Assembly: GCA_028817405.1 (NCBI GenBank)
Contig: JAPPPS010000105.1
Location: 6,757 to 70,756, forward strand
Reading direction: 5' to 3'
DNA length: 64,000 bases
From: Gammaproteobacteria bacterium
Lineage (GTDB): Bacteria; Pseudomonadota; Gammaproteobacteria; Arenicellales; Poriferihabitantaceae
Part shown: positions 7,006-64,000 of the stretch, piece after piece
Position numbering within the stretch: position 1 is the stretch's first letter
Layout of the letters: every line of letters starts with the position of its first letter
Notes under the pieces: model-generated
Seen by the model: only the letters and a program-made list of their open reading frames with translations
Told to the model about the DNA's origin: nothing
Database searches by the model: none
Position numbers and translations under genes: made by a program

Positions 7006-8313
7006 TTAGCCGGCCGCGGCGGCCGCGGGCTCGGGCGCGGTTTCATCACGCGCGGCCGGCGACGGTGTCGACATTTTCGGCCGCGACGACGGCATTTCCG
7101 GCGACGGTGCCGGCACCGCCGGCGCCGACACCCAGCGTCGCGAACGCCGGGTGCGGTCGGTGAACTTCCCCGCCAATTGGCCGCAGGCCGCGTCGATGTC
7201 GTCGCCGCGGGTTTTGCGCGTTACCGTGAACAGATTGCGGCCAATGAGAATGTCGCGGAAGCGCTCGACCGCGGCCGGCGACGGGCGACGGTAGTCGATG
7301 TCCGGCGACGGGTTGAACGGAATCAGGTTGATTTTGGCCGGCATGTCGCCGAGTAATTTCGCCAGCGCGCGCGCCTGCGCCGAACTATCGTTGACCCCGG
7401 CTAACAGCACATATTCGAAAGTGATGCGGGTGCGCGGGCGCGCCGCCGCGTACCGGCGGCAGGCCGCGAGCAATTCGGCAATCGGATATTTTTTGTTGAG
7501 CGGCACCAGTTGCTCGCGCAGCGCGTCATCCGGCGCGTGCAACGACACCGCCAAACTGACCGGGCAGGCGGATGCCAAGCGGTCGATGGCCGGCACCAAC
7601 CCCGCGGTGCTGAGCGTGACCCGCCGCTTCGACAAACCGAACGCGCAGTCGTCCAGCATGAGGCGCAGCGCGGCCACCACGGCGTCGAAGTTCAACAGCG
7701 GCTCGCCCATGCCCATGAGGACGATGTTGGTGATGGCGGTTTTGGTTTTGGTTTCGCCGCGGCCGTGGTCACCGTCACCGTCGCCGGGGTCGCCGTCGAC
7801 ACCGTCACCATCGATGTCACGGTCACCGTGGTCGCCGTCGACACCGTCACCATCGATGTCACGGTCGCCCGCCAATTCCCCCGCGGCCACCCACACCTGG
7901 CCGATGATTTCGTCCACCGTCAGGTTGCGGTTGTAGCCGTGCCGGGCGGTGGCGCAGAAGGTGCAGTTCAAGCCGCAGCCGACCTGCGACGACACGCACA
8001 AAGTGCCGCGCCCGGCCTCGGGGATGAACACGGTCTCAACGGCGTTGCCGTCGGCCAGCCGCAGCAGCCATTTGCGCGTGCCGTCCGCGGCCCGCCGGCG
8101 CGCCGCGACCGCGGGGAATTCAATCGCCGCGTCGCGGTTCAGGCGCGCGCGCAGCGCCTTGCTTAAGTCGGTGAACGCGTCCGGCGCGGTGACCCGGCGC
8201 TGGTAAATCCACCGCAGCGCCTGGCCCGCGTGGAATCGCTTCTCGCCCATGCGCGCGAAGAAGTCCTCCAACGCCGCGCGGTCGAGGGCGGCCAAGTTGG
8301 CGGCGGGTTGCAT
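7006..8313 (-). CDS. rlmN: 23S rRNA/tRNA m2A radical-SAM methyltransferase RlmN
   Basis: '[13 protein letters not shown]', the radical SAM '[10 protein letters not shown]' motif, and 'MGMGEPLLN'. Start taken at [11 protein letters not shown] (ATG 8313). Contains a Gly/Asp-rich insert. Confidence 0.93.
7789..7872. repeat. 42-bp tandem duplication inside rlmN (encodes [14 protein letters not shown] x2) within a GTCACC-type tract
   Basis: Unit gtcgccgtcgacaccgtcaccatcgatgtcacggtcaccgtg at 7789-7830. It repeats from 7831 with divergence only at the end of the unit. Confidence 0.9.
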
Positions 8314-11016: not shown

Positions 11017-11448
11017 ATGCCGTTTTATGAATACCGCTGCGAATCTTGCGGCCATGAGTTGGAGGCGCTGCAGAAAATCGCCGATGCGCCGCTGGTTTAT
11101 TGCCCGGAATGCGGCGAGGCGCGGCTGAAAAAGTTGGTGTCGAAGTCGGCGTTTCGCCTGAAAGGCGGCGGCTGGTATGCGACCGACTTCAAGCACAGCG
11201 GCGCGCGGCCGGGCAAGGATGGCGCGTCCAAAGACGACTCCAAGGACGGCGACTCGGCGCACGCCGGCGGTAAAGGCGGCGACGGTGATGGCGACGGTAA
11301 AAGCGGCGGTGGCGGCGACGGTAAAACCGGCGACGGTGGCGGCGACGGTCGCGGCGGTAAAACCGGCGGCGACGGTGGCAGCGACGGTGGTGGCGGCAAA
11401 ACCGCGGGGCAGTCGACGGCCGCGGAGAAGTTGCAAAAAAGCGCGTGA
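11017..11448 (+). CDS. FmdB-family zinc-ribbon protein with a Gly/Asp-rich C-terminal tail
   Basis: 'MPFYEYRCESCGHELEALQ...YCPECG' CxxC...CxxC ribbon. ATG at 11017. The tail GDGDGDGKSGGGGDGKTGDGGGDG is encoded by a GGCGAC/GGTGAC array. Confidence 0.85.
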   Translation: MPFYEYRCESCGHELEALQKIADAPLVYCPECGEARLKKLVSKSAFRLKGGGWYATDFKHSGARPGKDGASKDDSKDGDSAHAGGKGGDGDGDGKSGGGGDGKTGDGGGDGRGGKTGGDGGSDGGGGKTAGQSTAAEKLQKSA

Positions 11449-27856: not shown

Positions 27857-29020
27857 CTACAACAATTTTTTCAGCAGTCCATATTGGTCAGCGTTCGCAT
27901 CGCTTGCATTAACGATGAATAGTCCAAACCCGTTCTTGTCGGCCTCGGCGACAATTTCCGAAATGAAAGTCCGGTCGGCGGCGCCGGCGTTGTTGTCGGC
28001 CAAGAATTGATTAATCTCGGCGTCGCTCATCGCGCTGTGCAAACTCCCCCGCACAACATCCGAAGTCAATCCAACGGCGGTTCGGTGCGGCATGCGTTTG
28101 CCGTTTATCATCAGCGTTTTAATGTTGCAAAACAGCGCTGATTTAATAAACGCGTCTTTGATGTCGATGCGCGACGGCAACCATTTATTTCGGGAGTGTT
28201 TTTTCTCAATCAAGAACACATGGCCAGACACAACGGTGCATTCATCGGCGGTCCAGTTATACAAACCGCCAATCAGGTTTTTCATGGTGACCGTGGCTTT
28301 GCGCGCCACGGTTTTCTCCTTGGGCTGGTCGGTTAAGCGCTCGCGGTTTTGCGCGTTTTCCGCCAACGCGCGCGACAATTGTTTAAATTTTGCGACATCG
28401 TCGGCGATGATTTGGATTCGCTTTTTAATGCCGCCTTCCCCGTGCAGGCGCACCCCGGTACGACGGGCAATATTACGATAGGAATCCAAAGTTAATCGGG
28501 CGATTTCGGACAATTGGTCCATCTGCAACAAATTCCAGTGCAAAGCGCTGGAATGATAATTGCTTAACTCACAAATTTTCTTGTGCACATGTTGGTAGTC
28601 CATGACTTGTTTGGTGATTTTATTTTTACGCGTCTGCCCGGGGCGCGTCGTTTTTTCCGCTTCCACATAATAGCAGGGGATTACATAAACATTCAGCACG
28701 CTCATCAGCGACACCGTGTCCCATTGCAAAAAATCACGGTCGCCGTCCGCGCCTTCATCTTTGCAGAACGGGATGAGAGTGACGCGGTTTTTCATGCGCA
28801 GCGTGTCGTAGACGCGCGCATAAGGAAAGGTGCGCGTCCTTTTAGGGGACAACCATTGGCTGACGGCAAATTTATTGCCGTTGCAATCAAGCAGAAACGC
28901 GCCTTTTGACTTCAGATTGCCCGCAAGCAAGTCGCCCGCCGTATATGATTCCAGTTCGACCGGAATGCGAGGTTCATATGTGACCTCTTGGAGTTCGGCA
29001 AAAATATTGACAAAATTCAT
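27857..29020 (-). CDS. putative restriction endonuclease (unassigned family; candidate PD-(D/E)xK site in the C-terminal half)
   Basis: 387 aa in low-GC sequence. It is the last gene of the M-M-R cassette, 9 nt after the Dam-like gene. Candidate catalytic motif 'WTADECTVVSGHVFLIEKKHS' (D259...E272-x-K274; nt about 28199-28246). I recognised no other family signature. Confidence 0.55.
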   Translation of the reverse strand: MNFVNIFAELQEVTYEPRIPVELESYTAGDLLAGNLKSKGAFLLDCNGNKFAVSQWLSPKRTRTFPYARVYDTLRMKNRVTLIPFCKDEGADGDRDFLQWDTVSLMSVLNVYVIPCYYVEAEKTTRPGQTRKNKITKQVMDYQHVHKKICELSNYHSSALHWNLLQMDQLSEIARLTLDSYRNIARRTGVRLHGEGGIKKRIQIIADDVAKFKQLSRALAENAQNRERLTDQPKEKTVARKATVTMKNLIGGLYNWTADECTVVSGHVFLIEKKHSRNKWLPSRIDIKDAFIKSALFCNIKTLMINGKRMPHRTAVGLTSDVVRGSLHSAMSDAEINQFLADNNAGAADRTFISEIVAEADKNGFGLFIVNASDANADQYGLLKKLL

Positions 29021-29029
29021 ATCGACCTC

Positions 29030-29884
29030 CTATGCGCTTGCAGGCGTTTGGTCCGCCTTTGTCGCATAGTCCCGACTCATGATGAGAACTTCGTTGGAAA
29101 CTTTGCTCGCATTCATGCCGTACGTCCATGTCGGCGTCTTAAACGGATAGCCGTTGTACAGTTCGCGCACCGTCTCGCAGTCGTTATACGACAGTAGCCA
29201 GTTGTCGTGTTGAGACAGCAGTTTGGCGAGGCCTTCATGGTCAAAATCCTGGTGATGGTCGCCGCGCGTGCCGTATAGTTTGGATGCGATGCAGTACGGC
29301 GGGTCCAGGTACAAAAAATCGGCGCGGTGGCGGGGAATGGATTCGCTGAAGTCGGCTTTGGCGACCTGCAGGTTCTGCAACTTAAAATCGCCCAGTCTGT
29401 TGATGCATGCGACGGTAAAACGCGGATGCCCTGGCGACATGCCCCCGGACAAAGTGGTGCCGGAAAAAGAGCAGCGGTTGAGGGCGAAGAACGCGGCCGC
29501 CGATTCGACGGGGTCGGCGATGTCGGAATGCCGTTTCTGCAGGGCGTAAAAGGCGTCCTTTTTCATCGGATAGTATCGCCGCACGGTGTCTGCCAAACCG
29601 GCCGCGTCTTCCAACAGCGTCCGCCAAAAATTAACCAGAGGTTGGAAGGCGTCGTAAGCGAAAACTTCAACGCCGCGCGCGGCCAGCGCCAACTCGACCG
29701 AGCCGCCGCCGATAAACGGCGAGCAGAGTCGCTCAATGCCGGGCGGCAACGCATCGAGAATGCAGTTGACGGCGCGAGATTTGCCGCCCGGATAACGCAA
29801 CGGCGATTTGGCTGTCGCGCGTTCCTGTTCGCCCCATGCAGGCGGCAGCATGGACGATTGTTTAAGCGGGGCGACGCTGTTCAT
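29030..29884 (-). CDS. Dam-like (D12-class, alpha) N6-adenine DNA methyltransferase
   Basis: 'PLRYPGGKSR', motif I 'SPFIGGGSVEL' and motif IV 'FLYLDPPY'. ATG at 29884, with 29851 as an alternative. The ORF-track N-terminal extension to 30058 overlaps the upstream gene and is rejected. Confidence 0.88.
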   Translation of the reverse strand: MNSVAPLKQSSMLPPAWGEQERATAKSPLRYPGGKSRAVNCILDALPPGIERLCSPFIGGGSVELALAARGVEVFAYDAFQPLVNFWRTLLEDAAGLADTVRRYYPMKKDAFYALQKRHSDIADPVESAAAFFALNRCSFSGTTLSGGMSPGHPRFTVACINRLGDFKLQNLQVAKADFSESIPRHRADFLYLDPPYCIASKLYGTRGDHHQDFDHEGLAKLLSQHDNWLLSYNDCETVRELYNGYPFKTPTWTYGMNASKVSNEVLIMSRDYATKADQTPASA

Positions 29885-31025
29885 CTTGTTGTCCGGTTGA
29901 CGGTTTTGTTTGGCCGGCGTGGTTCGCGCAGGAAATGATTTTTGCGGCGTAATCGATGTATTCTTTTTCGGTTTCCATGCCGATATGCCGGCGTCCAAGT
30001 TTTTCCGCCGCCAGATTGGTAACCCCGCTGCCGGCGAAGATATCCAAAACAACGTCATTCATGTAGGAATAATAACGGATGACGCGGCTGGCCAGTTCTT
30101 CAGGGAACGGGCATGGGTGGATATTTTCGCGCGGCGCCACCGGGCGAATATTCCACACATTCTTGCTCTGCTCTTGATAACCGGTCAAGTCCATCCGGTT
30201 CGCGCGCTTTTCAGCCGCCGTTCGGTCATGGTAGATGTTGTTTTTGGATTTTTCACCGGCCGGTTTTTGGAAGACGAAAACATACTCCACGGATAAACTC
30301 GGGTAGTAGTAGCCGGGATAAGGGTGTTGCATGAGAACGCCGCTGCGCTTGTCTTTGACAATGCCCTTTTCCCAGACAATATCTTCCTTGAACTGCCAGC
30401 CCAGTTCCTCCATCCAACAGACAAAATGAAACGGCAACGCCATGCGTTTTCCGCCCCAGGCCACCGGAGAAATGTTGACTACATTGTGTCCGCCGGGTTT
30501 GAGCACGCGATACAACTCTTTGAATCGGTCCACCAGGAACACTTTGTAAAATTGATATGATTGCTCTTTGCGCTCCCAATAGCGCACCTCGCCGCCGAGT
30601 TTTTTAATATGGTCGGCGTAGTTGATGGCGTTGTGGTAAGGCGGCGAAGTGAACGCCAGTATGATGCTGTTGTCGGCAAGCGTTTTTAGCCCGTCCAAAC
30701 AATCGCCGTGGATAAACTCCCCGCGCCCCGCCGAATACGTCTTCAGTTTTTCCCGGGTGGTTCTGAATCGCCCGCCCAACTCCAGCGCGGAAATGATTTG
30801 TAACGCCTTGTTTTTGCCGACTCCGTTAAATTTTGTCAAATCTCCCACGGTAACTTTCGTACCCAGGTTGGCGCGCAGATAATCCACCAACTCCCGGCTC
30901 AAGTTTTTGATGCTGTTATTTTTGGCCCCGGTGCCGAGCAAAACTGAAATCAACTCCTCCGTTGATAACTCGGACGGCGGATTTTCCAGCAGTTTCTCGC
31001 GGGGCTGTTGGGATGCGGAGGTCAT
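29862..31025 (-). CDS. beta-class DNA methyltransferase (SPPY, possibly N4-cytosine) with a RadC-N-terminal-like HhH domain
   Basis: The N-terminal 90 aa, 'PREKLLENPPSELSTEELISVLLGTGAKNNSIKNLSRELV...FNGVGKNKALQIISALELGGRF', resemble the RadC/UPF0758 N-terminal HhH region. Then come motif IV 'LAFTSPPYHNAINY' and motif I 'VVLDIFAGSGVT'. ATG at 31025; the ORF track uses a TTG at 31034. Confidence 0.85.
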   Translation of the reverse strand: MTSASQQPREKLLENPPSELSTEELISVLLGTGAKNNSIKNLSRELVDYLRANLGTKVTVGDLTKFNGVGKNKALQIISALELGGRFRTTREKLKTYSAGRGEFIHGDCLDGLKTLADNSIILAFTSPPYHNAINYADHIKKLGGEVRYWERKEQSYQFYKVFLVDRFKELYRVLKPGGHNVVNISPVAWGGKRMALPFHFVCWMEELGWQFKEDIVWEKGIVKDKRSGVLMQHPYPGYYYPSLSVEYVFVFQKPAGEKSKNNIYHDRTAAEKRANRMDLTGYQEQSKNVWNIRPVAPRENIHPCPFPEELASRVIRYYSYMNDVVLDIFAGSGVTNLAAEKLGRRHIGMETEKEYIDYAAKIISCANHAGQTKPSTGQQDEQRRPA

Positions 31026-31048
31026 GTTATCCAATGCAGTAGATGCGT

Positions 31049-33917: not shown

Positions 33918-35366
33918 TTATGCGGCCGCGGTCGCGGTGATGGCCTCCATGGCGCGCAGAAAAACCGCGACTTCATCGGCCGAGTTGTAGTGCGCCAGCG
34001 ACACGCGCACGCAGGTTTCCAAGCCCAGCGGGTCCAGGATGTTGGCGGAAAAATAGTCGTTTTTGCGGGTGTGGACGCGCACCCCGCGGTCGCCGAGTTG
34101 GCGCACCACTGTCGCCGCCGGCGCGCCGTCCACCGCCAGCGACACCAAGCCCTCGCGGCGCGGATTGGCGGCGCCGCCGATGACGGTGACGCCGGGCATG
34201 GTCGCCAAACCGCGCCGCCCGCCGCCGCCGTTCAGCATGCAGTCCACCAGGTGTTTTTCATGCGCGGCGATGGCGCGGCCGGCGGCGACGATGCGCGCGC
34301 GGCGGCTCGCCGCGGCGGCGTCGACTTGCCCGCCCAACCAGTCGAGGTAATCCACCACCGCGCTGAAACTGGCGTACGCCGCGGCGTCGCGGGTGCCGAG
34401 TTCCCAGAAGTCGTCCGCGGTGCCGTCGAGATGCTCGTGCGGCGCGCGACTCAAGCGCGGCGACAACCACGCGAAACCGTAGTTGTGGCGCGAAAAAACC
34501 TTGTAGCCGGAGACCGCGTACGCGTCCGCGTCGATGCCGGCGGCCGCGACCCCGCCGTGCGGCGCGTGCTGGATGCCGTCGACGATGATGAAACACTCCG
34601 GCGATGCCGCGCGAATTTCCGCCGCCACCGCCGCGACATCCACCGCCATGCCGCTCACCGGGCTGGTGTGGATGACGGTGGCGACCCGGGTGTCGGCGAA
34701 ACCGTCGCCCAAGCGCGCGCGGTAGGCGGCGGCGTCGACGCTGCCGGTGCGCGGGTCGTGGGCGACGGCGGTGTAGCGCGCGCCGACATGCGCGGCCCAG
34801 CGGCGGGCCGCGCTGGCGGTGGCCGGGTGTTCCAGGGTGGAGCCGAGGACTTGCCATTTTTTGCCGTGCTCACCGTCGCGGCCCCGGCCCCGGTCGCGGG
34901 CGGCGGCGGCCAACACCGCGGCGCGGATGACCCGGAACAAACATTCGGTGCCGGATTCGCCGACGAAGATGACACCGTCGCCGGGGTCACCGTCACCGCC
35001 CCCGCTTAACGGACTGCGGGGGTGACGAGGGGGGGCATCACCGCCCCCGCTTAACGGACTGCGGGGGTGACGAGGGGGAGCATCACCGTCACCATCACCG
35101 TCACCGTCGCCGCCGACACCGAGGAAAGTCGCCATATCGGCCCGCCCGCGCGCAATCAACCGCCCCATTTCGGCCGAGGCCGGGTTGTCGCGCCCTTGGT
35201 TATCCGGAATCGCCGCCAACTTTGCCGCGACCTCGACCACCGATTTCAGCGTCAGCGAGCCGCCGGCGTTCTCGAAGAAAATCCGCGGGCCCTGGTACGG
35301 ACAACGCTCGACATGATGAAACCGCGCGCGAATTTCCTGCAGCAACTGGGCGTCGAACGCGCTCAT
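33918..35366 (-). CDS. class-V aminotransferase-fold PLP enzyme, cysteine desulfurase/desulfinase-like
   Basis: 'FFENAGGSLTLKSVVE' and the PLP-lysine region 'SGYKVF'. The ATG at 35366 overlaps the tctA TGA (ATGA). Interrupted in frame by the palindromic element at 34981-35110. Confidence 0.8.
   Translation of the reverse strand: MSAFDAQLLQEIRARFHHVERCPYQGPRIFFENAGGSLTLKSVVEVAAKLAAIPDNQGRDNPASAEMGRLIARGRADMATFLGVGGDGDGDGDGDAPPRHPRSPLSGGGDAPPRHPRSPLSGGGDGDPGDGVIFVGESGTECLFRVIRAAVLAAAARDRGRGRDGEHGKKWQVLGSTLEHPATASAARRWAAHVGARYTAVAHDPRTGSVDAAAYRARLGDGFADTRVATVIHTSPVSGMAVDVAAVAAEIRAASPECFIIVDGIQHAPHGGVAAAGIDADAYAVSGYKVFSRHNYGFAWLSPRLSRAPHEHLDGTADDFWELGTRDAAAYASFSAVVDYLDWLGGQVDAAAASRRARIVAAGRAIAAHEKHLVDCMLNGGGGRRGLATMPGVTVIGGAANPRREGLVSLAVDGAPAATVVRQLGDRGVRVHTRKNDYFSANILDPLGLETCVRVSLAHYNSADEVAVFLRAMEAITATAAA
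34999..35078 (+). repeat. two tandem 45-bp copies of the palindromic element CCCCCGCTTAACGGACTGCGGGGG-TGACGAGGGGG
   Basis: Identical hairpins at 34999-35022 and 35044-35067 (7-bp GC stems, 10-nt loop). Each is followed by TGACGAGGGGG and flanked by GTCACC arrays. Read in frame on the minus strand as DAPPRHPRSPLSGGG x2. Confidence 0.9.
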
Positions 35367-36887: not shown

Positions 36888-37661
36888 TTATTGCAGAATC
36901 GTTACCAAGCCGGTACCGATTTCATAAAACGGACTCACATTGCCGGTCGGCAAGCCGACATACAACACGCTGACGAACAGCAGCAGCAGCACGCCGAGAA
37001 TCACCGCGGCCACCAACGCCATCGGGCCGCCGCGCCGCTCGCCCAACAAAAACATCACCGCCAGAATAAAAAACGGCGCCAGCGCATAAAAGCCGAAGTC
37101 CTGCATGAACGCGGCGAACAACACCGGCAACGCCAACATCGCGCCGACGCGGTTGGCGCGCGCGCCGAGCAAGTAAAGCGCGATGACGGCGGCGGCGGTG
37201 GTTAACTTGACGGTGTGCAGCGCGCCGCTTTGCTCGGCCGTCAACCAACCCGGCAGCAACAGATACAAAAACGGTAGCGCGAGAATGCCGAAGGTCGAGG
37301 CGTACCATTTAACGCCGGCCATGCCGTCCGCGCCGGTGTGATGCGATTCACGCGCCGCGGTCTCGGCGCCGTCATCCGAGGCCGCCGCCAACATATCGCG
37401 CGCGCGCGCGGCGGTTTCACCGTCGCCACCGTCACCGTCACCGTCACCATCGCCGCCGCGCCGGTCGACTTTCCAGTGATAAAGCAGTTGCCCGACCGCG
37501 GCCACGGCAATCAACAGCAGCACCGCGCGCGGCCACGCCGAGGCGCCGAACCGGTAGATTTCGATTGCCTTGTCGAAACGAAACGAATAGGCGTACAACA
37601 ACCCGGCCAACGCCAGCCACAGCGCGGCCTCGACCAGATGACCGGTTTTTAAGTTGCCCAT
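36888..37661 (-). CDS. tctB: TctB-like small permease, enlarged by a hydrophilic Gly/Asp-rich insert
   Basis: Lies between tctC and tctA and has multiple TM helices. ATG at 37661. Insert '[24 protein letters not shown]...HHTGADG' at nt about 37325-37469. Confidence 0.7.
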   Translation of the reverse strand: MGNLKTGHLVEAALWLALAGLLYAYSFRFDKAIEIYRFGASAWPRAVLLLIAVAAVGQLLYHWKVDRRGGDGDGDGDGGDGETAARARDMLAAASDDGAETAARESHHTGADGMAGVKWYASTFGILALPFLYLLLPGWLTAEQSGALHTVKLTTAAAVIALYLLGARANRVGAMLALPVLFAAFMQDFGFYALAPFFILAVMFLLGERRGGPMALVAAVILGVLLLLFVSVLYVGLPTGNVSPFYEIGTGLVTILQ

Positions 37662-39879: not shown

Positions 39880-41457
39880 ATGAATCTCAAGCGAAACATG
39901 CGCGCCGCGCGCATTGGCAAAGCGTGGGCCGTATTCCCCGTCATCTTTTTCCTCGCCCTCGCCGGTTGCGCGACCAATCCGGTGACCGGCAAGAGCGAAA
40001 TTATGCTGTATTCCACCGCGGATGAGATTGCGCTCGGCGCGCGACATTATCCGGCATCGCAGCAAGCCGGCGGCGGGTTGTATACGGCGGATGCGGCGCT
40101 TGGCGAATATGTCGCTGCGGTCGGGCGGCGGGTGGCGGCGGTCAGCGACCGGGCGTTGCCGTACGAATTTGTCATCGTCAACAACGGCACGCCCAACGCG
40201 TGGGCGTTGCCCGGCGGGAAAATCGCGGTCAGCCGCGGATTGCTGGTGGCGCTGGAAAACGAAGCCGAACTGGCCGCCGTGCTCGGCCATGAAATCGTGC
40301 ATGCCGCGGCGAAACACGGCGCGCACGCGCAGCAGCGCGGCGCGTTGTTCAACCTCGTGCTACTCGGCGTGGCGCATGCCGGCCGCGACTCGGAGCATCG
40401 CAACCGAGTGGTCGGCGGCGCCGAGGTGGCGCTGCAGTTGACCGGGCAAAAATACGGCCGCGACGCCGAGCGCGCGGCGGATTACCACGGCATCAAATAT
40501 ATGCACGCCGCGGGCTACGACACGGCGGCGGCGGTGACGCTGCAGGAAAAGTTCGTGGCGTTGTCCGAGGGCCGCAAAAGCAACTGGCTCGACGGGTTGT
40601 TCGCCAGCCATCCGCCGTCAACCGAGCGCGTCGACAACAACCGGGACGCGCTCGCCGCATTTCCGGCCGGCGGCGACCTCGGTCGGGCGCGTTATCAAGA
40701 ACGCCTCGCGTATCTGCGCGCGCGCAACGACGCGTACGAGCGGGCGGACCGCGCTCAACGGTTGCTCGACACCGACCCCGCCGCCGCCCTGCGCGACATC
40801 GACGCCGCCATCAAACGCGAGCCGCGCGAGTCGCTGTTTTACGGAATCAAGGGCGACATCCTTTTCGCCCAGGCGCGCTACGCGCAAGCCGCGCGCGAAT
40901 ACGATGCGGCGATTGCGCGCGGCCCAAATTATTACGCGCACTTCCTCGGCCGCGGCCGCGCCCATAATCTCCTCGGGCAACCGGCGCAGGCGAGGCGCGA
41001 CCTCGAGCGCAGCAACCAACTGCTGCCCAACGCGGTCGCGTCATACATCCTCGGCGGCATCGTGCTGGCGGACGGCGAGCGCGCCTACGCCAAGCGACTG
41101 TTCAAGGAAGCGGGCGCAGCCGGCGGTGAAATCGGCGGCGCGGCCGCCAAGGCTTACGCCCGGCTGGACATCGCCGATGCGCCGCACGACTATGTGCGCG
41201 TCGCGCCGTCGTTCAAAAACGACGGCAACGGCGACGGTGAAATCGTCGTCAAGGTGGAAAATCCGACCGGTTATGCGTTGCGCGGCATCGTCATCCGCGT
41301 CAGCGCCAACATCAACGCGCAACCGGTCCGCCGCCGACTGGCGGTCGACCGTCTTGCCCCCGGCGCGGCCAAAGTCGTGTCCAGCCGCATCCGCTACCGG
41401 GCGGAAGATGAAGCGGATGTCAAAGCGAGCGTTATCCAAGCGGCGGTCGACAGTTAG
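39880..41457 (+). CDS. M48-family zinc metalloprotease lipoprotein with TPR repeats (BepA/YfgC-like)
   Basis: Lipobox 'LALAGC', 'HEIVHAAAKHG' HExxH motif, and TPR-like C-terminal half. Confidence 0.85.
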   Translation: MNLKRNMRAARIGKAWAVFPVIFFLALAGCATNPVTGKSEIMLYSTADEIALGARHYPASQQAGGGLYTADAALGEYVAAVGRRVAAVSDRALPYEFVIVNNGTPNAWALPGGKIAVSRGLLVALENEAELAAVLGHEIVHAAAKHGAHAQQRGALFNLVLLGVAHAGRDSEHRNRVVGGAEVALQLTGQKYGRDAERAADYHGIKYMHAAGYDTAAAVTLQEKFVALSEGRKSNWLDGLFASHPPSTERVDNNRDALAAFPAGGDLGRARYQERLAYLRARNDAYERADRAQRLLDTDPAAALRDIDAAIKREPRESLFYGIKGDILFAQARYAQAAREYDAAIARGPNYYAHFLGRGRAHNLLGQPAQARRDLERSNQLLPNAVASYILGGIVLADGERAYAKRLFKEAGAAGGEIGGAAAKAYARLDIADAPHDYVRVAPSFKNDGNGDGEIVVKVENPTGYALRGIVIRVSANINAQPVRRRLAVDRLAPGAAKVVSSRIRYRAEDEADVKASVIQAAVDS

Positions 41458-41480
41458 CGCAAACTAACCGCCGGTGACCG

Positions 41481-42935
41481 TCACTGCCCGGCCACGGTCA
41501 TGCGTTCAATTAAGATGGAGCCGGCGCGGAGGTTGCTGCGGTGGTCGGTGTCAGCGCCGGTGGCGGTTAGGCGTTGGAACATGTCGGATAAGTTGCCGGC
41601 GATGGTGAATTCTTGCACCGGGTGGCGAATCGCGCCGCCTTCCACCCAGAAGCCGAAGGCGCCGCGCGAGTAGTCGCCGGTGACGGTGTTGACACCGAAG
41701 CCGATGAGTTCGGTCACCACCAAGCCGCGTTCCATGCCGGCGATGAATTCCGCCAAGCCATCCGAGGTGGTCGGCGCGATTTCCAAGTTATGCACGCCGC
41801 CGGCGTTGGCGGTGGTTTGCAAGTTGAGTTTGCGCGCCGCGTAACTGTCGAGGACATAGCCGCGCAACACGCCGTCGGCGACCAAGTCGCGCGCCGCGGT
41901 GCGCACGCCCTCGCCGTCGAAAACCGCGCCGCCGGCCGACTTGCGTAAGTGCGGTTGTTCGTGGATGCGGATGTTGTCGGGGAAGAGTTGCGCGCCGGCT
42001 TTGTCCAACAAAAACGACGCGCGCCGGTACAAGTTGCCGCCGCTGACGGCGCTGACCAAGTGCGACAAGATGCTGCGCGCGACGGTCGGGTGGAACAGCA
42101 CCGGATACTCGCCGGTGCGCGCTTTTTGCGCGCCGAGTCGCTGCACGGTGCGCCGCCCGGCTTCGGCGCCGATGGCGCGCGGCGGCGCCAAGTCGGCGGC
42201 GTCGCGCGCCGTGTCGTACCAGAAGTCGCGCTGCATGGCGTCGCCTTCGCCGGCGATGACCTGGCAGGAGACGCTGTGGCGGGAACTGCGGTGGAAGCCG
42301 CGGAAGTCGTTGGAGTTGGCGTATAAATCGACGCCTTGGTGGCTGGCCACGGTCGCGCCCTCGGTGTTGCTGATGCGCGGGTCGAACGCCAGCGCCGCGG
42401 CCTCGCAACCGGTCGCGATGGCCATGGCTTCCTCCATGCCGAGCGGCCACGGATGATACAAGTCGAGGTCGGGGAATTCGGCCGCCAACAGCGCCGGGTC
42501 AGCCAAACCGTTGCAGTCGTCTTCCTCGGTGAGTTTGGCGATGGCGCAGGCCGATTCCACGCTGCGGCGAATCGCGTCCGGCGCGAAGTCGGTGGTGCGC
42601 GCGCTGCCGCTGCGCTTGCCGAAATACACCGTCACCGACAAGCCCTTGTCGCGGTTGTGCTCGACGGTCTCGACCGCGGCGTTGCGCACCGTGACCGACA
42701 TGCCCTGCTCCTGGCCGACTTCCACCTCGGCCGCGGACGCGCCGGATGCGCGCGCCTGCTTCAGCGCGATGTCCGCGACTGCGGCGATGCGGCGTTGCAG
42801 TTCTTCCGCGGCCTCCGTCGTTGATTGGCCGGTGTCGGCGTTGGCGATGGTGCCGGCGGCCGCGGTCGCCGCAACGGGTTCCGCGGTCGCCGCAATGTGT
42901 TCCGCCGCCGCAGTTTCCGCGCGCCTTGCGCTCAT
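41481..42935 (-). CDS. pmbA: metalloprotease PmbA (TldE)
   Basis: PmbA/TldD fold with 'GGVHNLEIAP' and a 'TGDYSRGAFGFWVEGG' C-terminus. The ATG at 42935 shares 1 nt with the tldD stop. Confidence 0.9.
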   Translation of the reverse strand: MSARRAETAAAEHIAATAEPVAATAAAGTIANADTGQSTTEAAEELQRRIAAVADIALKQARASGASAAEVEVGQEQGMSVTVRNAAVETVEHNRDKGLSVTVYFGKRSGSARTTDFAPDAIRRSVESACAIAKLTEEDDCNGLADPALLAAEFPDLDLYHPWPLGMEEAMAIATGCEAAALAFDPRISNTEGATVASHQGVDLYANSNDFRGFHRSSRHSVSCQVIAGEGDAMQRDFWYDTARDAADLAPPRAIGAEAGRRTVQRLGAQKARTGEYPVLFHPTVARSILSHLVSAVSGGNLYRRASFLLDKAGAQLFPDNIRIHEQPHLRKSAGGAVFDGEGVRTAARDLVADGVLRGYVLDSYAARKLNLQTTANAGGVHNLEIAPTTSDGLAEFIAGMERGLVVTELIGFGVNTVTGDYSRGAFGFWVEGGAIRHPVQEFTIAGNLSDMFQRLTATGADTDHRSNLRAGSILIERMTVAGQ

Positions 42936-44416: not shown

Positions 44417-44500
44417 GGCGACGGTGATGGTGACGGTGACGGTGGCGGTGACGGCGATGCCCCCCTCGTCACCCCCGCAGTCAGTTAAGCGGGGGCGGGG
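44417..44500 (-). repeat. intergenic composite: GGTGAC/GGCGAT array plus one inverted copy of the palindromic element
   Basis: Array at 44417-44460. CCCCCTCGTCA follows at 44461-44471, then the hairpin cccccgcagtcagttaagcggggg at 44472-44495. This matches the reverse complement of the 34999 copy with 1 loop mismatch. Confidence 0.9.
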
Positions 44501-44502
44501 AT

Positions 44503-45435
44503 TTAAGCGGGAACGCCGGCGCGGCTATCGACGGTGTCGACGCTGCCGGCGTGGTGGTGTTCGGCGCCGGCACGGTTGTGTTCGGCGACGGTGGCGGCGC
44601 AATCATCGACAAAAACATCGGCGAAAACATCCGGGCGACGGTGCGACAAACTCGGCAACTGCGCGCGGATGTTGGCCACGCGGCGGTCGTCGATGTCGGC
44701 GAAAACCACGCCGGGGCCAGCCGCGCGCTCGGCAAGCACCTCGCCCCACGGGTCGATGACGACGCTGTGGCCGTAGGTGACGCGCCCGTTGGAATGCGCG
44801 CCGACTTGCGCCGGCGCGATGACATAACAGGCGTTTTCAATCGCGCGCGCGCGCAACAGCGTCTCCCAATGCGCGCGCCCGGTCAGCGCCGTGAACGCCG
44901 ACGGTACCAACAGTACGGTCGCGCCGGCCGCGGCCAAGCGGCGGTACAGTTCCGGGAATCGCAGGTCGTAGCAGACGCTCAAACCCAACACCCCGGCCGG
45001 GCTGGCTTGGGTCACGCAGGCGCGGCCCGGCATGGTGTAGTCGGATTCGTGGTGCTGTTCGCCGTCCTTCAAGTCGATGTCGAACAGGTGGATTTTGTCG
45101 TATCGGGCGCGGCAGTCACCGTGGTCGTCAAACACCAACAGCGCGTTGCACACTCGCGACGCATCGGCGCTGCGCAGCGGCACGCTGCCGGCGATGAGCC
45201 ACAAGCCGGACTCGCGCGCTAACCGCCGCATGAAATCTTGAATCGCGCCGCCGCCGAAGTCCTCCGCGCAGGCGCGCAGTTGGCGTTTGTCGCGCGCCAT
45301 TAGCGCGAAGCATTCCGGCAACGCCGCCAGCGTCGCGCCGCCGGTTTTGGCGGCATCGACCAACTCGGCGGCCGCGTCCAGGTTGCGCGCGATGTCATCG
45401 CCGGAGGTGGTTTGCAGCGCGGCGATGCGGGTCAT
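44503..45435 (-). CDS. carbon-nitrogen hydrolase (nitrilase superfamily, Nit/omega-amidase-like)
   Basis: 'RIAALQ', 'LPECF' Glu, 'YDKIHLFD' Lys region and '[12 protein letters not shown]' Cys. Confidence 0.88.
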
Positions 45436-46240: not shown

Positions 46241-46343
46241 TGGCGATGGCGGTGACGGTGATGACGGTGGTGACGGTGATGACGGTGGTGACGGTGATGA
46301 CGGTGCTGGCGGCGATGACGGTGATGACGGTGCTGGCGGCGAC
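46241..46343 (+). repeat. intergenic nested tandem array of GGTGAC/GGTGAT units
   Basis: gtgacggtgatgacggtg (18 bp) occurs three times at 46252-46305. It is followed by ctggcggcgatgacggtgatgacggtg (27 bp) and a partial second copy. Confidence 0.9.
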
Positions 46344-46670: not shown

Positions 46671-46730
46671 ACTCTACGCGCAATCTGCGCGCATTGCAAA
46701 CCCGCGGCGCGCATTGCAAACCCGCGGCGC
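46671..46730 (-). promoter_or_regulatory. candidate infA promoter (-35 TTGCAA, 17-nt spacer, -10 TAGAGT) embedded in a 20-bp tandem duplication
   Basis: On the minus strand, TAGAGT is plus-strand actcta at 46671-46676 and TTGCAA lies at 46694-46699. The unit gcgcgcattgcaaacccgcg occurs at 46687-46706 and 46707-46726, which creates a second TTGCAA at 46714-46719. Confidence 0.4.
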
Positions 46731-46745
46731 GCGATGGGGCCGCGG

Positions 46746-47798
<1,053 letters not shown>

Positions 47799-48991: not shown

Positions 48992-49103
48992 CAGCCGGAG
49001 TCCAGAGTTTTTTTACTTCTGGCCGGGCCAATTAAAGCCAAAGCCTGCCCGCCCACGAGCGGGGACTCTGGATGCCCGCTCAACAGACTGCGAGCGTGAC
49101 GGC
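48992..49103 (+). repeat. REP/MITE-like palindromic element, long form (about 110 bp)
   Basis: Terminal arms ggagtccagagt (48997-49008) and actctggatgcc (49065-49076), with an internal cccgc/gcggg stem. The 3' module cccgctcaacagactgcgagcgTGACGG has a loop matching 8/10 with the loop of the CCCCCGC...GCGGGGG element. Confidence 0.6.
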
Positions 49104-55195: not shown

Positions 55196-55200
55196 ACGCC

Positions 55201-55262
55201 GTCACCGTCACTTTCACCGTCACCGTCACTTTCACCGTCGCCGTCGCCGCCATCATCGTCAT
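55201..55262 (+). repeat. intergenic GTCACC-type array between the TRAP permease and binding-protein genes
   Basis: gtcaccgtcactttcacc (18 bp) occurs at 55201-55218 and 55219-55236. A degenerate gtcgccgtcgccgccatcatcgtcatc follows. Confidence 0.9.
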
Positions 55263-56415: not shown

Positions 56416-57171
56416 TTACAACCGTCGCAGTCGGTACACTTTTTCGTTCAACGAATCCAGGCCGCGGTCGGCGAGGTTGCCGACGATGTCGGGGCCGGAT
56501 GACTGGGTGATGATGTCGATGGCGAAGTCGGCGGCGAACAACCGTCGCACTTCCGCTTCCGGCACCGAGAACGGGGGGCCTTTCATTTGGCGCTCATCGT
56601 AGTCCATGCTGATGAGAAAGACTTGCGCGCGCGGTTGCAGCAGCGCGGCGAGATGCGCGGCGTAGTCGCCGCGCATCGGTTGCGGCAGCGCAATCAACGC
56701 GGCGCGGTCGTAAACCAAGCGCGCGCGCTCCAAGTCGCCGGGTCGCAAGTCAAACCAATCGCCGCACCATAACTCGATGTCGATGCCGGTGCTTTCGATG
56801 TTGCCGTCACCGTCGTCACCGTCGCCCCCGCTTAACAGAACGCGGGGGTGACGGGGATGAGTGTCGTCGCCACCGTCGCCAACATAACGCGCAAACCGCG
56901 CACCGTCGATAACTTCATAACGCAACCCGTTCTCGGCGAAGAAGTCGCGGCAGGCGACGGCGCTGACTTCCACGCCGATGACATGGTGGCCGGCACGCGC
57001 CAACCACAGCAGGTCCAGCGACTTGCCGCATAACGGCGCCAACACCGTCGCGCCTGGTTCCGCCTCCGCCGCAAACGCGCGCCAGAATTTCTTCAGCCGC
57101 GAGTTAACCTTGACTTGATGAAACCCCAGCCGCCGCTCGGCCCACCGTTGATGCCAGAAGTCGATGTCCAT
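56416..57171 (-). CDS. tpm: thiopurine S-methyltransferase (Tpm) carrying an in-frame palindromic-element insert
   Basis: 'FWHQRWAERRLGFHQ', 'VLAPLCGKSLDLLWLARAGHHVIGVEVS'. Insert 'DDTHPRHPRVLLSGGDGDDGDG'. Confidence 0.88.
   Translation of the reverse strand: MDIDFWHQRWAERRLGFHQVKVNSRLKKFWRAFAAEAEPGATVLAPLCGKSLDLLWLARAGHHVIGVEVSAVACRDFFAENGLRYEVIDGARFARYVGDGGDDTHPRHPRVLLSGGDGDDGDGNIESTGIDIELWCGDWFDLRPGDLERARLVYDRAALIALPQPMRGDYAAHLAALLQPRAQVFLISMDYDERQMKGPPFSVPEAEVRRLFAADFAIDIITQSSGPDIVGNLADRGLDSLNEKVYRLRRL
56801..56880 (+). repeat. palindromic element copy (cccccgcttaacagaacgcggggg-TGACGGGGA) with a flanking GTCACC array, inside tpm
   Basis: Hairpin at 56825-56848 with the same 7-bp stems as the 34999 copy; the loop differs at 3 positions. 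Preceded by gtcaccgtcgtcaccgtcg. Confidence 0.9.
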
Positions 57172-58236: not shown

Positions 58237-59478
58237 TTAATCAATACCGGCCGGCGGCGAGCGGTCACACGGCGGGCGGCGGGCGGCGACCGCGGTGCGT
58301 GGCGGCGCAATCATGCGCGTTGTTGCCGCGCAATCATCCGCTATCGTCGCCGCCGCCCGGCCGGCATGCTGCGCCAACGCCCAGTCGACATGCTCGCGCA
58401 CCAGTTCGCTTGGATGCGTTTGGCGGCTGCGCAGCGCGTCGATGATTGCGCCGTCACCGCGCGCATCGTCTTCGTCGCGCGCATTTTGGTCGTGTGCTTT
58501 TTGGTCGCGCGCATTCCCCAACGCCACCGCGATGTTGCGCAGCCATCTGACATGGCCGATGCGGCGAATCGCCGAGCCTTCGGTGTACCGTTCGAAGTCG
58601 CGTTCATCCCAAGCGAACAACGCGGTTAACGCGCGCGCATCGAGTCCATGGCGAATGACGAAGTCCGGTTGCGCGGTAACTTGCGCGTAACGATTCCACG
58701 GGCAGACCAGTTGACAGTCATCGCAGCCGAAGATGCGGTTGCCGACATGTTTGCGCAGATGCGTTGGAATGCTGCCGTGCAGTTCGATGGTGAGATACGA
58801 GATGCACCGTCGCGCGTCGAGTTGGTACGGCGCGACGATGGCGCGGGTCGGGCAGATGTCGATGCAGGCCGCACAACTGCCGCAGTGCGCGGCGACCGGC
58901 GCGTCCACCGGCAGCGGCAAGTCGGTGTACAGTTCGCCGAGGAAGAACCACGAGCCGCTTTCCCGGTTCAACAAGTTGGTGTGTTTGCCAATCCAACCGT
59001 GGCCGGATTTTTGCGCCAGCGCTTTTTCCATCACCGGCGCGCTGTCGCAGAACGCGCGATAACCGAAGTCGCCGACTTCGCCGCTGATTCGCGTCGCCAA
59101 CTGTTGCAGTTTGCGGCGCATGACTTTGTGGTAGTCGCGCCCCAACGCATAGCGCGAGATGTATCCGATGCGCGAATCATTCAACGCCGCCTGCGCCGCG
59201 TCCATGCGCTGCGGCAAGTAGTCCATGCGCGCGGTGATGACGCGCAGCGTGCCGTCCACCAACGCGGCCGGCCGCGTACGCTTGCGGCCGTGCTTCGACA
59301 TATACGCCATCTCACCGTGAAACCCGCGCGCCAGCCAGTCGCCAAGATGCCGCTCGGCCTCAGCCAAGTCGACATCGCTGACCTTGATGCGCGCAAACCC
59401 CAACTGCGCGCCCCAGGCTTTAATCAACTCGGCCAGCGCGCGGTGGTCGATGGAATGACGGGTTGCCGGTTGATGCAT
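58237..59478 (-). CDS. queG: epoxyqueuosine reductase QueG
   Basis: Two 4Fe-4S motifs 'CGSCAACIDICP' and 'CDDCQLVCPWN', plus 'CISYLTIE'. ATG at 59478. Divergent from nnr as in E. coli. Long low-complexity C-terminus. Confidence 0.9.
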   Translation of the reverse strand: MHQPATRHSIDHRALAELIKAWGAQLGFARIKVSDVDLAEAERHLGDWLARGFHGEMAYMSKHGRKRTRPAALVDGTLRVITARMDYLPQRMDAAQAALNDSRIGYISRYALGRDYHKVMRRKLQQLATRISGEVGDFGYRAFCDSAPVMEKALAQKSGHGWIGKHTNLLNRESGSWFFLGELYTDLPLPVDAPVAAHCGSCAACIDICPTRAIVAPYQLDARRCISYLTIELHGSIPTHLRKHVGNRIFGCDDCQLVCPWNRYAQVTAQPDFVIRHGLDARALTALFAWDERDFERYTEGSAIRRIGHVRWLRNIAVALGNARDQKAHDQNARDEDDARGDGAIIDALRSRQTHPSELVREHVDWALAQHAGRAAATIADDCAATTRMIAPPRTAVAARRPPCDRSPPAGID

Positions 59479-59607
59479 GAGATGCGTTGATGTTTTGTAA
59501 CCGTGCGGCCGCTTTTTGAGTTGTTGCAATTTTTGCAACAACTGGTCGCCCGGTCGCCGTTTGATTCCATGGTAGTGTAAAGTAAAACGCGCGCGAACTT
59601 AACCACC

Positions 59608-63727: not shown

Positions 63728-64000
63728 CGAGTCACGGTGTTGCGGCCGGTACCGTCACGGTCACGGTCACGGTCACCGTCACCGGCATCGTCACCGGCAC
63801 CGCGGTCACCACCGTCACCACCGTCACCGACATCGCCACCGTCACCGGCATCGACATCGCCGGCGACACCGTCACCGTCATCACAACCATCGCCGCGGCC
63901 GGCATCTTCGCCGAGTCCACCGTCACCGTCGCCCCCACCCGCATCCAACCACCGCCCGATATCCTCGACGCTGCCGACCACCGCGCTCGCGCCCCAGTCG
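63724..64000 (-). CDS. 3' end of an unidentified upstream gene (panB/folK position) with a Gly/Asp-rich tail of about 75 aa
   Basis: The frame stays open to the window edge (...DWGASAVVGSVEDIGRWLDAGGGDGDG...). Its TGA overlaps the panC ATG (ATGA at 63724-63727). The tail is encoded by a GTCACC array at 63735-63960. Confidence 0.5.
   Translation of the reverse strand, partial: DWGASAVVGSVEDIGRWLDAGGGDGDGGLGEDAGRGDGCDDGDGVAGDVDAGDGGDVGDGGDGGDRGAGDDAGDGDRDRDRDGTGRNTVTR

Follow-up and report, generated by a model that had tools for sequence, protein, structure and literature searches.

REP (repetitive extragenic palindrome) and REPIN elements, GC-rich imperfect palindromes of ~20–65 bp that exist in many copies, typically lie outside genes on their 3' side, and are mobilized by RAYT transposases, are defined by a conserved GTAG/GGAG head and by inverted doublets, and coding mini- and microsatellites with a unit that is a multiple of three undergo slippage-driven, in-frame length polymorphism of low-complexity loops. 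MIRU typing distinguishes strains by the number of units in their arrays. In the account of PMC3184786, the RPE (Ogata et al., 2000) are palindromic repeats of ~105–146 bp in Rickettsia, located in-frame within genes as well as intergenically, the betaproteobacterial repeat element (BRE; Hot et al., 2011) is present as internal insert in ~9 genes, and MIRU (Supply et al., 1997) are units of 40–100 bp with open reading frames (ORFs) overlapping adjacent genes, used for the genotyping of clinical isolates; some of the repeats covered there lengthen the 3' ends of genes. In this study, we analyzed a 45-bp repeat unit with a GC-rich hairpin that lies within tpm, the gene of a thiopurine S-methyltransferase, in a stretch of 64,000 nucleotides from a gammaproteobacterial metagenome-assembled genome (MAG; contig JAPPPS010000105.1), hereafter called the window. 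The unit likely belongs to a lineage-restricted, REP-like family of GC hairpins, of which a young sub-family is nested in GGTGAC hexamer arrays as an in-frame 45-bp minisatellite.

The element behaves like a blend of RPE, BRE, REP, and MIRU and belongs to none of them. Compared with the known in-frame bacterial repeats, it is smaller, tandemly expanding, and undescribed. Like RPE and BRE as portrayed in PMC3184786, it is a dispersed palindrome that occurs between genes and in-frame within functional genes, where it adds a peptide segment and leaves the fold intact, and some copies extend gene 3' ends. Unlike the RPE of that account, its unit has 45 bp, is nested in a hexanucleotide microsatellite, is tandemly amplified, and varies in copy number at the strain level; the host is a gammaproteobacterial MAG with 65.5% G+C, and the element is set apart from RPE by size and taxon. 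Within the scope of the same account it shares with MIRU a unit in the 40–100 bp range at several loci, tandem arrays, and the overlap of the unit with a neighboring gene (here via the loop TAA as stop codon, three cases). As in MIRU typing, the copy number per locus is strain-variable. MIRU are, however, described there as intercistronic elements of Mycobacterium, whereas this element resides mainly inside enzyme genes of an unrelated taxon and has a strong 7–12 bp GC hairpin tied to GGTGAC arrays.

The resemblance to REP and REPIN lies in the short GC-rich stem-loop, the many copies, and the conservation of the stem at the nucleotide level; in position, some copies resemble them in lying just 3' of stop codons. 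Unlike these elements, the aligned units (17) have no GTAG/GGAG head, form direct tandems with a 45-bp period instead of inverted doublets, and include copies inside genes. No Y1 transposase (RAYT) was found among the window genes. In-frame length polymorphism of low-complexity loops is shared with intragenic tandem repeats, but one complex unit of 45 bp is found again at loci unrelated to each other, non-coding ones included, and therefore represents a dispersed family rather than a local expansion. A phase-variable simple-sequence contingency locus differs in that the units here (6 and 45 bp) are multiples of three. A CRISPR-like array was rejected for lack of spacers. Rfam assigned no family to positions 34000–58000 at the gathering threshold, and literature searches on the peptide motif and on Gly-Asp hexanucleotide repeats returned nothing relevant.

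The hairpin in tpm was confirmed in sequence and coordinates as the earlier note on this DNA had given it: a left arm CCCCCGC (56825–56831), a loop TTAACAGAAC (56832–56841), and a right arm GCGGGGG (56842–56848), followed by TGACGGGGA (56849–56857). This 33-mer occurs once in the window, against an expectation of 0 from 100 dinucleotide shuffles. The stem can lengthen from 7 to 12 bp by pairing as CGTCACC..GGTGACG with a 3-nt bulge. Since GCGGGGGTGACG pairs with CGTCACC(GC)CCCCGC, the right arm holds one inverted hexamer, and the hairpin stem runs into the hexamer arrays. The GTCACC array reported ahead of the hairpin is present, but short and imperfect (56801–56824, GCC GTC ACC GTC GTC ACC GTC GCC; period 9 with 2.2 copies according to Tandem Repeats Finder).

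The GC-rich repeat unit comprises 15 codons and is nested in (GGTGAC)n arrays that encode Gly-Asp (GD). On the mRNA strand of tpm, its conserved core reads CGTCACCCCCGC-N5-GTTAAGCGGGGGC. In total, 23 hairpin copies were counted in the DNA surveyed (~64 kb of window and ~95 kb of related loci). The core CCCCCGCTTAAC-N5-GCGGGGGTGACG was found at three window loci, namely tpm, a class-V aminotransferase gene, and the gap between a CN-hydrolase gene and tldD.

The host gene tpm is intact. Its product matched the Pfam family TPMT (PF05724) with E = 9e-62 over profile positions 1–217, in two stretches separated at the insert, and Tpm of Pseudomonas syringae (PDB 1pjz) with E = 6e-39. In the latter alignment, residues 16–98 correspond to chain residues 1–81 and residues 130–250 to 82–202. 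As 1pjz residues 81 and 82 flank the insert directly, no host residue was lost and the 31-aa insertion is clean. The nearest orthologues (P0005 and P0006, 78% identity) lack the insert and read ..FVRFIG-NAGGDIELWCGD.. at this site. An AlphaFold2 (AF2) model built on 20 orthologues had a predicted local distance difference test score (pLDDT) below 50 only at residues 103–127 and at the N-terminus, the remainder being at ~90; residues 103–127 sit between strands 94–98 and 132–136. The best Foldseek matches of the model were the TPMT structures 2gb4, 3bgd, and 2bzg, with a template modeling (TM) score of 0.78. The insert is thus predicted to form a disordered surface loop at the tip of a beta-hairpin, in agreement with the surface loop that the earlier note expected from orthologue alignment and structural mapping. 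Judged from the Rossmann-like topology, the insertion site would lie at the N-terminal end of the strand with the CGDxF motif, away from the cofactor site. The ratio of non-synonymous to synonymous substitution rates (dN/dS) of the tpm core was 0.20 against the orthologue in L004 (dS 0.61) and 0.19 against that in L005, and the ORF was intact in more than 10 alleles. Purifying selection thus acts on tpm, and a pseudogene, which the earlier note had named as fatal to its reading, was rejected because the gene is intact and constrained. An intein was also rejected, as the insert has no intein features.

The class-V aminotransferase contains two perfect tandem 45-bp units at 34993–35082, which read ..DAPPRHPRSPLSGGGDAPPRHPRSPLSGGG.., that is, DAPPRHPRSPLSGGG twice. 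The minus-strand ORF of tpm gives ..GDGGDDTHPRHPRVLLSGGDGDDGDGNIES.. across its own unit, so that, as described earlier, the element is read through in the same orientation and frame (PRHPRxxLSGG) as both aminotransferase units, antisense to the CCCCCGCTTAAC strand in both genes. The number of units in the aminotransferase differs between alleles: P0134–P0138 (95–97% identity) carry one unit vs. two in the window, P0139 carries a GD/His-rich array only, and P0140–P0163 have no insert and read FLGV directly followed by GDGILFVGE. The AF2 model shows the insert as the stretch of lowest confidence, between a helix and a strand; in the alignment to PDB sequences the insert region fell outside the aligned part. 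The empty sites of both genes carry native Gly-Asp codons (GGC GAT GGC in the L008 aminotransferase, GGC GGC GAT in the L007 tpm).

Copy number also varied at tpm. Alleles from other samples that are at least 93% identical outside the insert contained one unit (P0001, P0124), two units (P0003, P0128, P0130, P0131, P0132; in P0132 with a GD array between the two), or five units at an exact 45-bp period (P0002/L005). The distant relative P0004/L004 (78% identity) had ~3.5 units and long GD arrays. Spacings from unit to unit were 45, 48, 54, and 138 bp, each a multiple of three. Because 45- and 6-bp units keep the frame automatically, in-frame copy-number alleles are not by themselves evidence of selection. 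Partial Tpm proteins stop at the repeat; assemblies therefore break there.

Internal coding copies, all in the PRHPR..LSGG frame, were found in Tpm, the aminotransferase, QueG (L004), CitB (L006), and the hypothetical protein P0121. The units in the C-terminal region of the L004 QueG were located without conditioning on the frame. At the site of these units (L004:1–435), the QueG of the window (58237–59541) carries a different low-complexity insert, ARDQKAHDQNARDEDDARGDGA, perhaps the remains of an array. When 1.84 billion cluster representatives were scanned in full by HMMER, a two-unit peptide as query gave only three true hosts (Tpm, the CitB/TcuB-like P0123 from L006, and the 117-aa hypothetical P0121) and one false match, and a word-indexed protein search with a synthetic four-unit peptide yielded no candidates. 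From its accession number, which is near that of the window Tpm, P0121 probably originates from the same MAG series. Scanning 185,579 GTDB species genomes for the core pattern gave a single match, L003; the species of the window is not represented there with assembled copies. An exact-pattern scan of JGI metagenome contigs gave 0 matches although the JGI contig L004 fits the pattern, so the scanned contig set lacks the samples concerned. The 30 matches of a looser JGI pattern were rejected as unrelated hairpins. Public data thus contain the element only rarely.

Copies in stop-containing frames were confined to intergenic DNA and the extreme 3' ends of genes, which in the latter position terminate at the loop TAA. 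Such termination was seen in three cases: the FGGY kinase of L003 (..ACC CCC GCA GTC TGT TAA), the aminotransferase orthologue of L008, which has no internal insert and ends with GCC CCC GCT TAA, and the CN-hydrolase gene of the window, which ends with a partial left arm, the full intergenic copy starting 7 nt later. Some extragenic copies lie 0–13 nt from stop codons, and the best-preserved copies are intragenic. A nhmmer profile built from the 17 units added the 3'-end copy of L008 and a diverged copy in the window, assigned to a sub-family B, of which two better-preserved members (L040:2547 and L040:2777) are located just past the right end of the window. The sub-family B hairpins (TGCCCGC TCAAC..... 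GCGGGCG TGACGG; window 48996–49103, L040:2440–2870) are 3' intergenic, and an inverted repeat, GGAGTCCAGAGT..GACTCTGGAT, lies ahead of them; those of L040 have the right arm (GCGGGCGTGACGG-N-GGGGG) repeated three times in tandem behind them.

Conservation within the alignment of 17 units was unevenly distributed. Variant cells amounted to 1/238 in the stem, 0/85 in TTAAC, and 1/85 in TGACG, vs. 20/85 in the 3' half of the loop and 26–28% in the flanks. Synonymous positions are fixed in CGT CAC CCC CGC..TTA AGC GGG GGC, including the rare TTA and GGG codons, while codons outside the stem vary in amino acid (V/S, P/L, T/A, H/P). The identical core also occurs in non-coding copies. With synonymous sites fixed and non-stem residues variable, the constraint acts on the nucleic acid, or the copies are homogenized, rather than on the peptide. 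Stem pair 2 of sub-family B is G-C where family A has C-G, and 98.7% of the cells were paired.

All copies in the lineage of the window lie within arrays built from the hexamer GTCACC, or GGTGAC on the opposite strand. For the double hexamer GTCACCGTCRCC, 11 occurrences were counted in the window compared to 0.06 expected, and the arrays occupy ~1% of the sequence. Arrays without a hairpin, found in four proteins and three intergenic regions, outnumber those with one. All genic loci in the window with at least two hexamers (8/8) have GGTGAC on the mRNA and are translated as Gly-Asp; the arrays between co-directional genes (3/3) read GUCACC on the mRNA, opposite to the genic arrays. In a pure hexamer array, five of the six frames are open. 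Isolated in-frame hexamers are mostly GTC ACC (Val-Thr, 22) and GTG ACx (12), with GGT GAC in 4 instances, and native VTV motifs or Val-Thr hexamer seeds never form arrays. As these commoner seeds never expand, the Gly-Asp exclusivity of genic arrays calls for either selection or biased seeding, and it is on the arrays that selection, or seeding from native Gly-Asp codons, operates. The hairpin unit has a fixed phase relative to the flanking hexamers; together with the Gly-Asp frame of all genic arrays, this means that the frame common to tpm and the aminotransferase comes largely from the arrays and cannot be counted as independent.

Translation of the unit with its arrays in six frames showed two stop-free frames, GD..APPRHPRSPLSGGG..GD and, as the second, the third frame of the CCCCCGCTTAAC strand (His-Arg). 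The stops that the earlier note saw in the opposite orientation are real in two frames of the CCCCCGCTTAAC strand (TAA or TGA), but the third frame is open. Its conclusion that only one strand and frame is tolerated is not supported in that form, as stops rule out four frames rather than five. No copy used the open His-Arg frame; with three internal coding loci that were not conditioned on the frame, P = 1/8 if both frames were equally tolerated.

The following history would connect these observations. Older, more diverged copies would be those in intergenic DNA or precisely at the 3' ends of genes, and a young, near-identical sub-family in the lineage of the window would have become set inside (GGTGAC)n arrays. 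The number of 45-bp units would change through replication slippage or unequal exchange, which stalling at the hairpin may aid. Genes would tolerate the repeat as 45- and 6-bp units cannot shift the reading frame, as the arrays appear to occupy loops already holding Gly-Asp codons, and as the encoded Gly/Asp/Pro/Arg-rich peptide may be accepted as a disordered loop. Orientations or frames that expose TAA or TGA would persist only outside genes or at gene ends, with TAA turning into the stop codon. Spread between loci would proceed by array homology (ectopic conversion or template switching), not by a transposase; we infer this from the lack of a transposase gene in the window, the lack of target-site duplications, and the position of the copies inside arrays that make up so little of the DNA. 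The sequences themselves show the anatomy of the unit, where it is inserted, its variable copy number, a core conserved at the nucleotide level, the pattern of frames and orientations, and selection on tpm; slippage as the copy-number mechanism, homology-guided copying from array to array, and a direction from extragenic to genic are proposed. A more specific scenario, in which (GGTGAC)n arrays serve as landing pads and the module is copied array to array without a transposase and then amplifies in place, is conceivable, though we are rather doubtful of it. If true, it would represent a recombinational "array-hopping" form of repeat proliferation through which a host-associated bacterium could have the surface loops of its essential enzymes reshaped.

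Several observations weigh against a REP-like family that came to be nested in arrays. No donor–recipient pair, target-site duplication, or transposase was found in the window and the related loci. The copies in L003 and L008 are without arrays, and the arrays may have come first or may have been spawned by the hairpin. The exchanged stem pair of sub-family B, common to three copies, probably goes back to one substitution. For the aminotransferase, the AF2 model is of low quality (mean pLDDT 62), and the placement of the loop is weakly supported. The N-terminal extension of the L006 CitB has in-frame hexamers in the T-V-T phase, and the Gly-Asp rule for arrays may thus not be absolute. Finally, avoidance of the open His-Arg frame cannot be shown from the three frame-unconditioned loci.

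The earlier note had explained the common frame by purifying selection on insertions of a mobile or expanding sequence. In its full form, a mobile hairpin would insert at random with respect to position, orientation, and frame, and selection on the peptide would leave only the PRHPR..LSGG frame in genes. This is unlikely in our view, although internal copies in four to five different proteins do share one frame, stop-containing frames are limited to intergenic DNA and the ends of genes, and both chromosomal orientations exist. The confinement of all window-lineage copies to the arrays is non-random, the more numerous hairpin-free arrays already obey the same frame rule, and the fixed phase to the hexamers means that the frame of the hairpin is not independent. 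Furthermore, a second open frame exists, and P0121 and P0123, which came from a search with a peptide of the PRHPR..LSGG frame, cannot count as independent evidence. The earlier interpretation is supported in part: dispersal, expansion, the predicted surface loop, and the single frame of internal copies stand; the frame itself derives mostly from the arrays.

A role in contingency or regulation, in which loop copy number would tune the activity or stability of the enzyme or the RNA hairpin would act on translation or mRNA stability and, at gene 3' ends, as a REP-like end protector or as a ribosome-stalling signal, appears improbable. The nucleotide-level conservation of the core, the compensatory change in the stem, the proximity of extragenic copies to stop codons, and alleles that vary between samples speak for such a role, but the hosts are unrelated housekeeping enzymes, and units that are multiples of three provide no on/off switching; an intrinsic terminator was rejected as no copy is followed by a T-run. 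We give very little credence to a functional protein module D-x-x-P-R-H-P-R-x-x-L-S-G-G under selection at the protein level, such as a short linear motif by which a sponge symbiont would interact with its host. The display of a 15-aa motif in exposed disordered loops of several proteins would suit it, but not the invariant synonymous sites and rare codons of the core next to amino acid changes in non-stem codons, the presence of the identical core outside coding sequence and, at the ends of genes, in different frames, the unstable copy number, or the cytoplasmic housekeeping function of the hosts. The probability of an assembly or annotation artefact, or of a decaying tpm pseudogene, is negligible. 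The data do stem from metagenome assembly, in which repeats break contigs and leave partial proteins, but the identical sequence is present in independent assemblies made by different pipelines from different samples (ENA k141 contigs, SHAF22 scaffolds, NCBI MAG, JGI, and Logan), and the many intact tpm alleles, dN/dS of ~0.2, and TPMT fold contradict decay. The REP-like hairpin family with an array-nested, in-frame sub-family thus remains the reading that we prefer.

The locus illustrates that working enzymes can harbor a structured, selfish-looking DNA repeat and its expansion, and adds a compact tandem case to the few known ones (RPE, BRE). Copy-number alleles within a population are a natural experiment on the loop insertion that a methyltransferase fold tolerates, and can serve as strain markers for an uncultured bacterium. 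The bacterium may be associated with sponges, as the name of the L003 MAG (PNGst_C_binSS3) suggests; PMC6742649 gave no confirmation of a sponge origin of L003. As a practical warning, metagenome assemblies break at the repeat, and proteins that contain it are lengthened. The link of microsatellite and hairpin suggests a testable, transposase-free route of dispersal. The coordinates of the features are summarized in Table 1.

Table 1. Hairpin copies, hexamer arrays, and host gene features in the window
Feature	Position	Strand	Description
tpm, thiopurine S-methyltransferase	56416..57171	-	intact host gene, 251 aa; Pfam TPMT, PDB 1pjz, AF2, dN/dS
93-bp (31-aa) insert in tpm	56785..56877	-	DGGDDTHPRHPRVLLSGGDGDDGDGNIESTG; Gly-Asp hexamer remnants, one hairpin unit, more Gly-Asp hexamers
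Hairpin core in tpm	56825..56857	+	7-bp stem CCCCCGC/GCGGGGG, 10-nt loop TTAACAGAAC, then TGACGGGGA
129-bp insert in class-V aminotransferase (gene 33918..35366)	34983..35111	-	GD array, two 45-bp hairpin units, GD array
Non-coding unit, CN-hydrolase stop to tldD start	44454..44503	-	opposite chromosomal orientation; mRNA reads CCCCCGCUUAAC
Partial left arm GTT CCC GCT TAA	44503..44514	-	last codons and stop codon of CN-hydrolase gene
Sub-family B copy TGCCCGC TCAACAGACT GCGAGCG TGACGG	49073..49103	+	nhmmer E = 1e-3; 12 nt 3' of FGGY kinase stop
Hexamer array without hairpin, and 42-bp higher-order repeat	7768..7866	-	in RlmN; in-frame GD-rich peptide
GD-frame array and derived 27/39-bp repeats	11268..11407	+	tail of Zn-ribbon (FmdB-type) protein
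Hexamer array without hairpin	37425..37454	-	TctB-like protein; L008 orthologue has GGRGGTD there
Hexamer array, GTCACC on mRNA strand	44417..44458	-	joins non-coding unit to tldD ATG
Intergenic hexamer/27-bp array	46251..46342	-	infA / cell-wall hydrolase gene; mRNA strand reads GUCACC
Intergenic hexamer/18-bp array	55199..55249	+	dctM / dctP; mRNA GUCACC; 8 hexamers here, 7 in L040
GD- and Arg-Asp (RD)-frame arrays	63754..63938	-	C-terminal tail of gene leaving window end; HAD hydrolase per L040 annotation

Two further observations concern the arrays. The tldD-side array (44417–44452) reaches the ATG directly, with no Shine-Dalgarno sequence visible. In L006:690–950, the CitB/TcuB-like N-terminal extension of ~85 aa combines GGC GAC (G-D) and ACC GTC ACC (T-V-T) in one frame; it is the only case seen in which the other array orientation is translated.

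Several housekeeping proteins also contain tandem repeats that keep the frame, with unit lengths of 21, 27/39, and 42 bp: RlmN (7774–7866), Der/EngA (2141–2194), the Zn-ribbon protein in its tail (11268–11407), and the HAD hydrolase in its tail (63731–63940). With 486 and 589 aa, respectively, RlmN and Der seem longer than members of their families usually are. In-frame repeat expansion looks like a genome-wide habit of the organism.

Two genes between aceE and aceF (27857–29020 and 29862–31034) have a G+C content at third codon positions (GC3) of 0.62–0.64 vs. ~0.83 elsewhere, and the syntenic genes in L039 are annotated as N6/N4 and D12-class DNA methyltransferases. The pair is probably an acquired methylase or restriction-modification island in the pyruvate dehydrogenase cluster. 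Beside tauE, the sister strain L039 (L039:1–5496) carries Cas1 and Csx12 genes, whereas the window (~39880–42456) has an M48 peptidase and an unannotated ORF, which is a strain-specific difference in gene content. Perfect 20-bp tandem duplications were found at 46687–46732 (2.3 copies, upstream of infA) and at 47736–47775 (2 copies, inside the SRP54-type, FtsY-like ORF 46746..47798).

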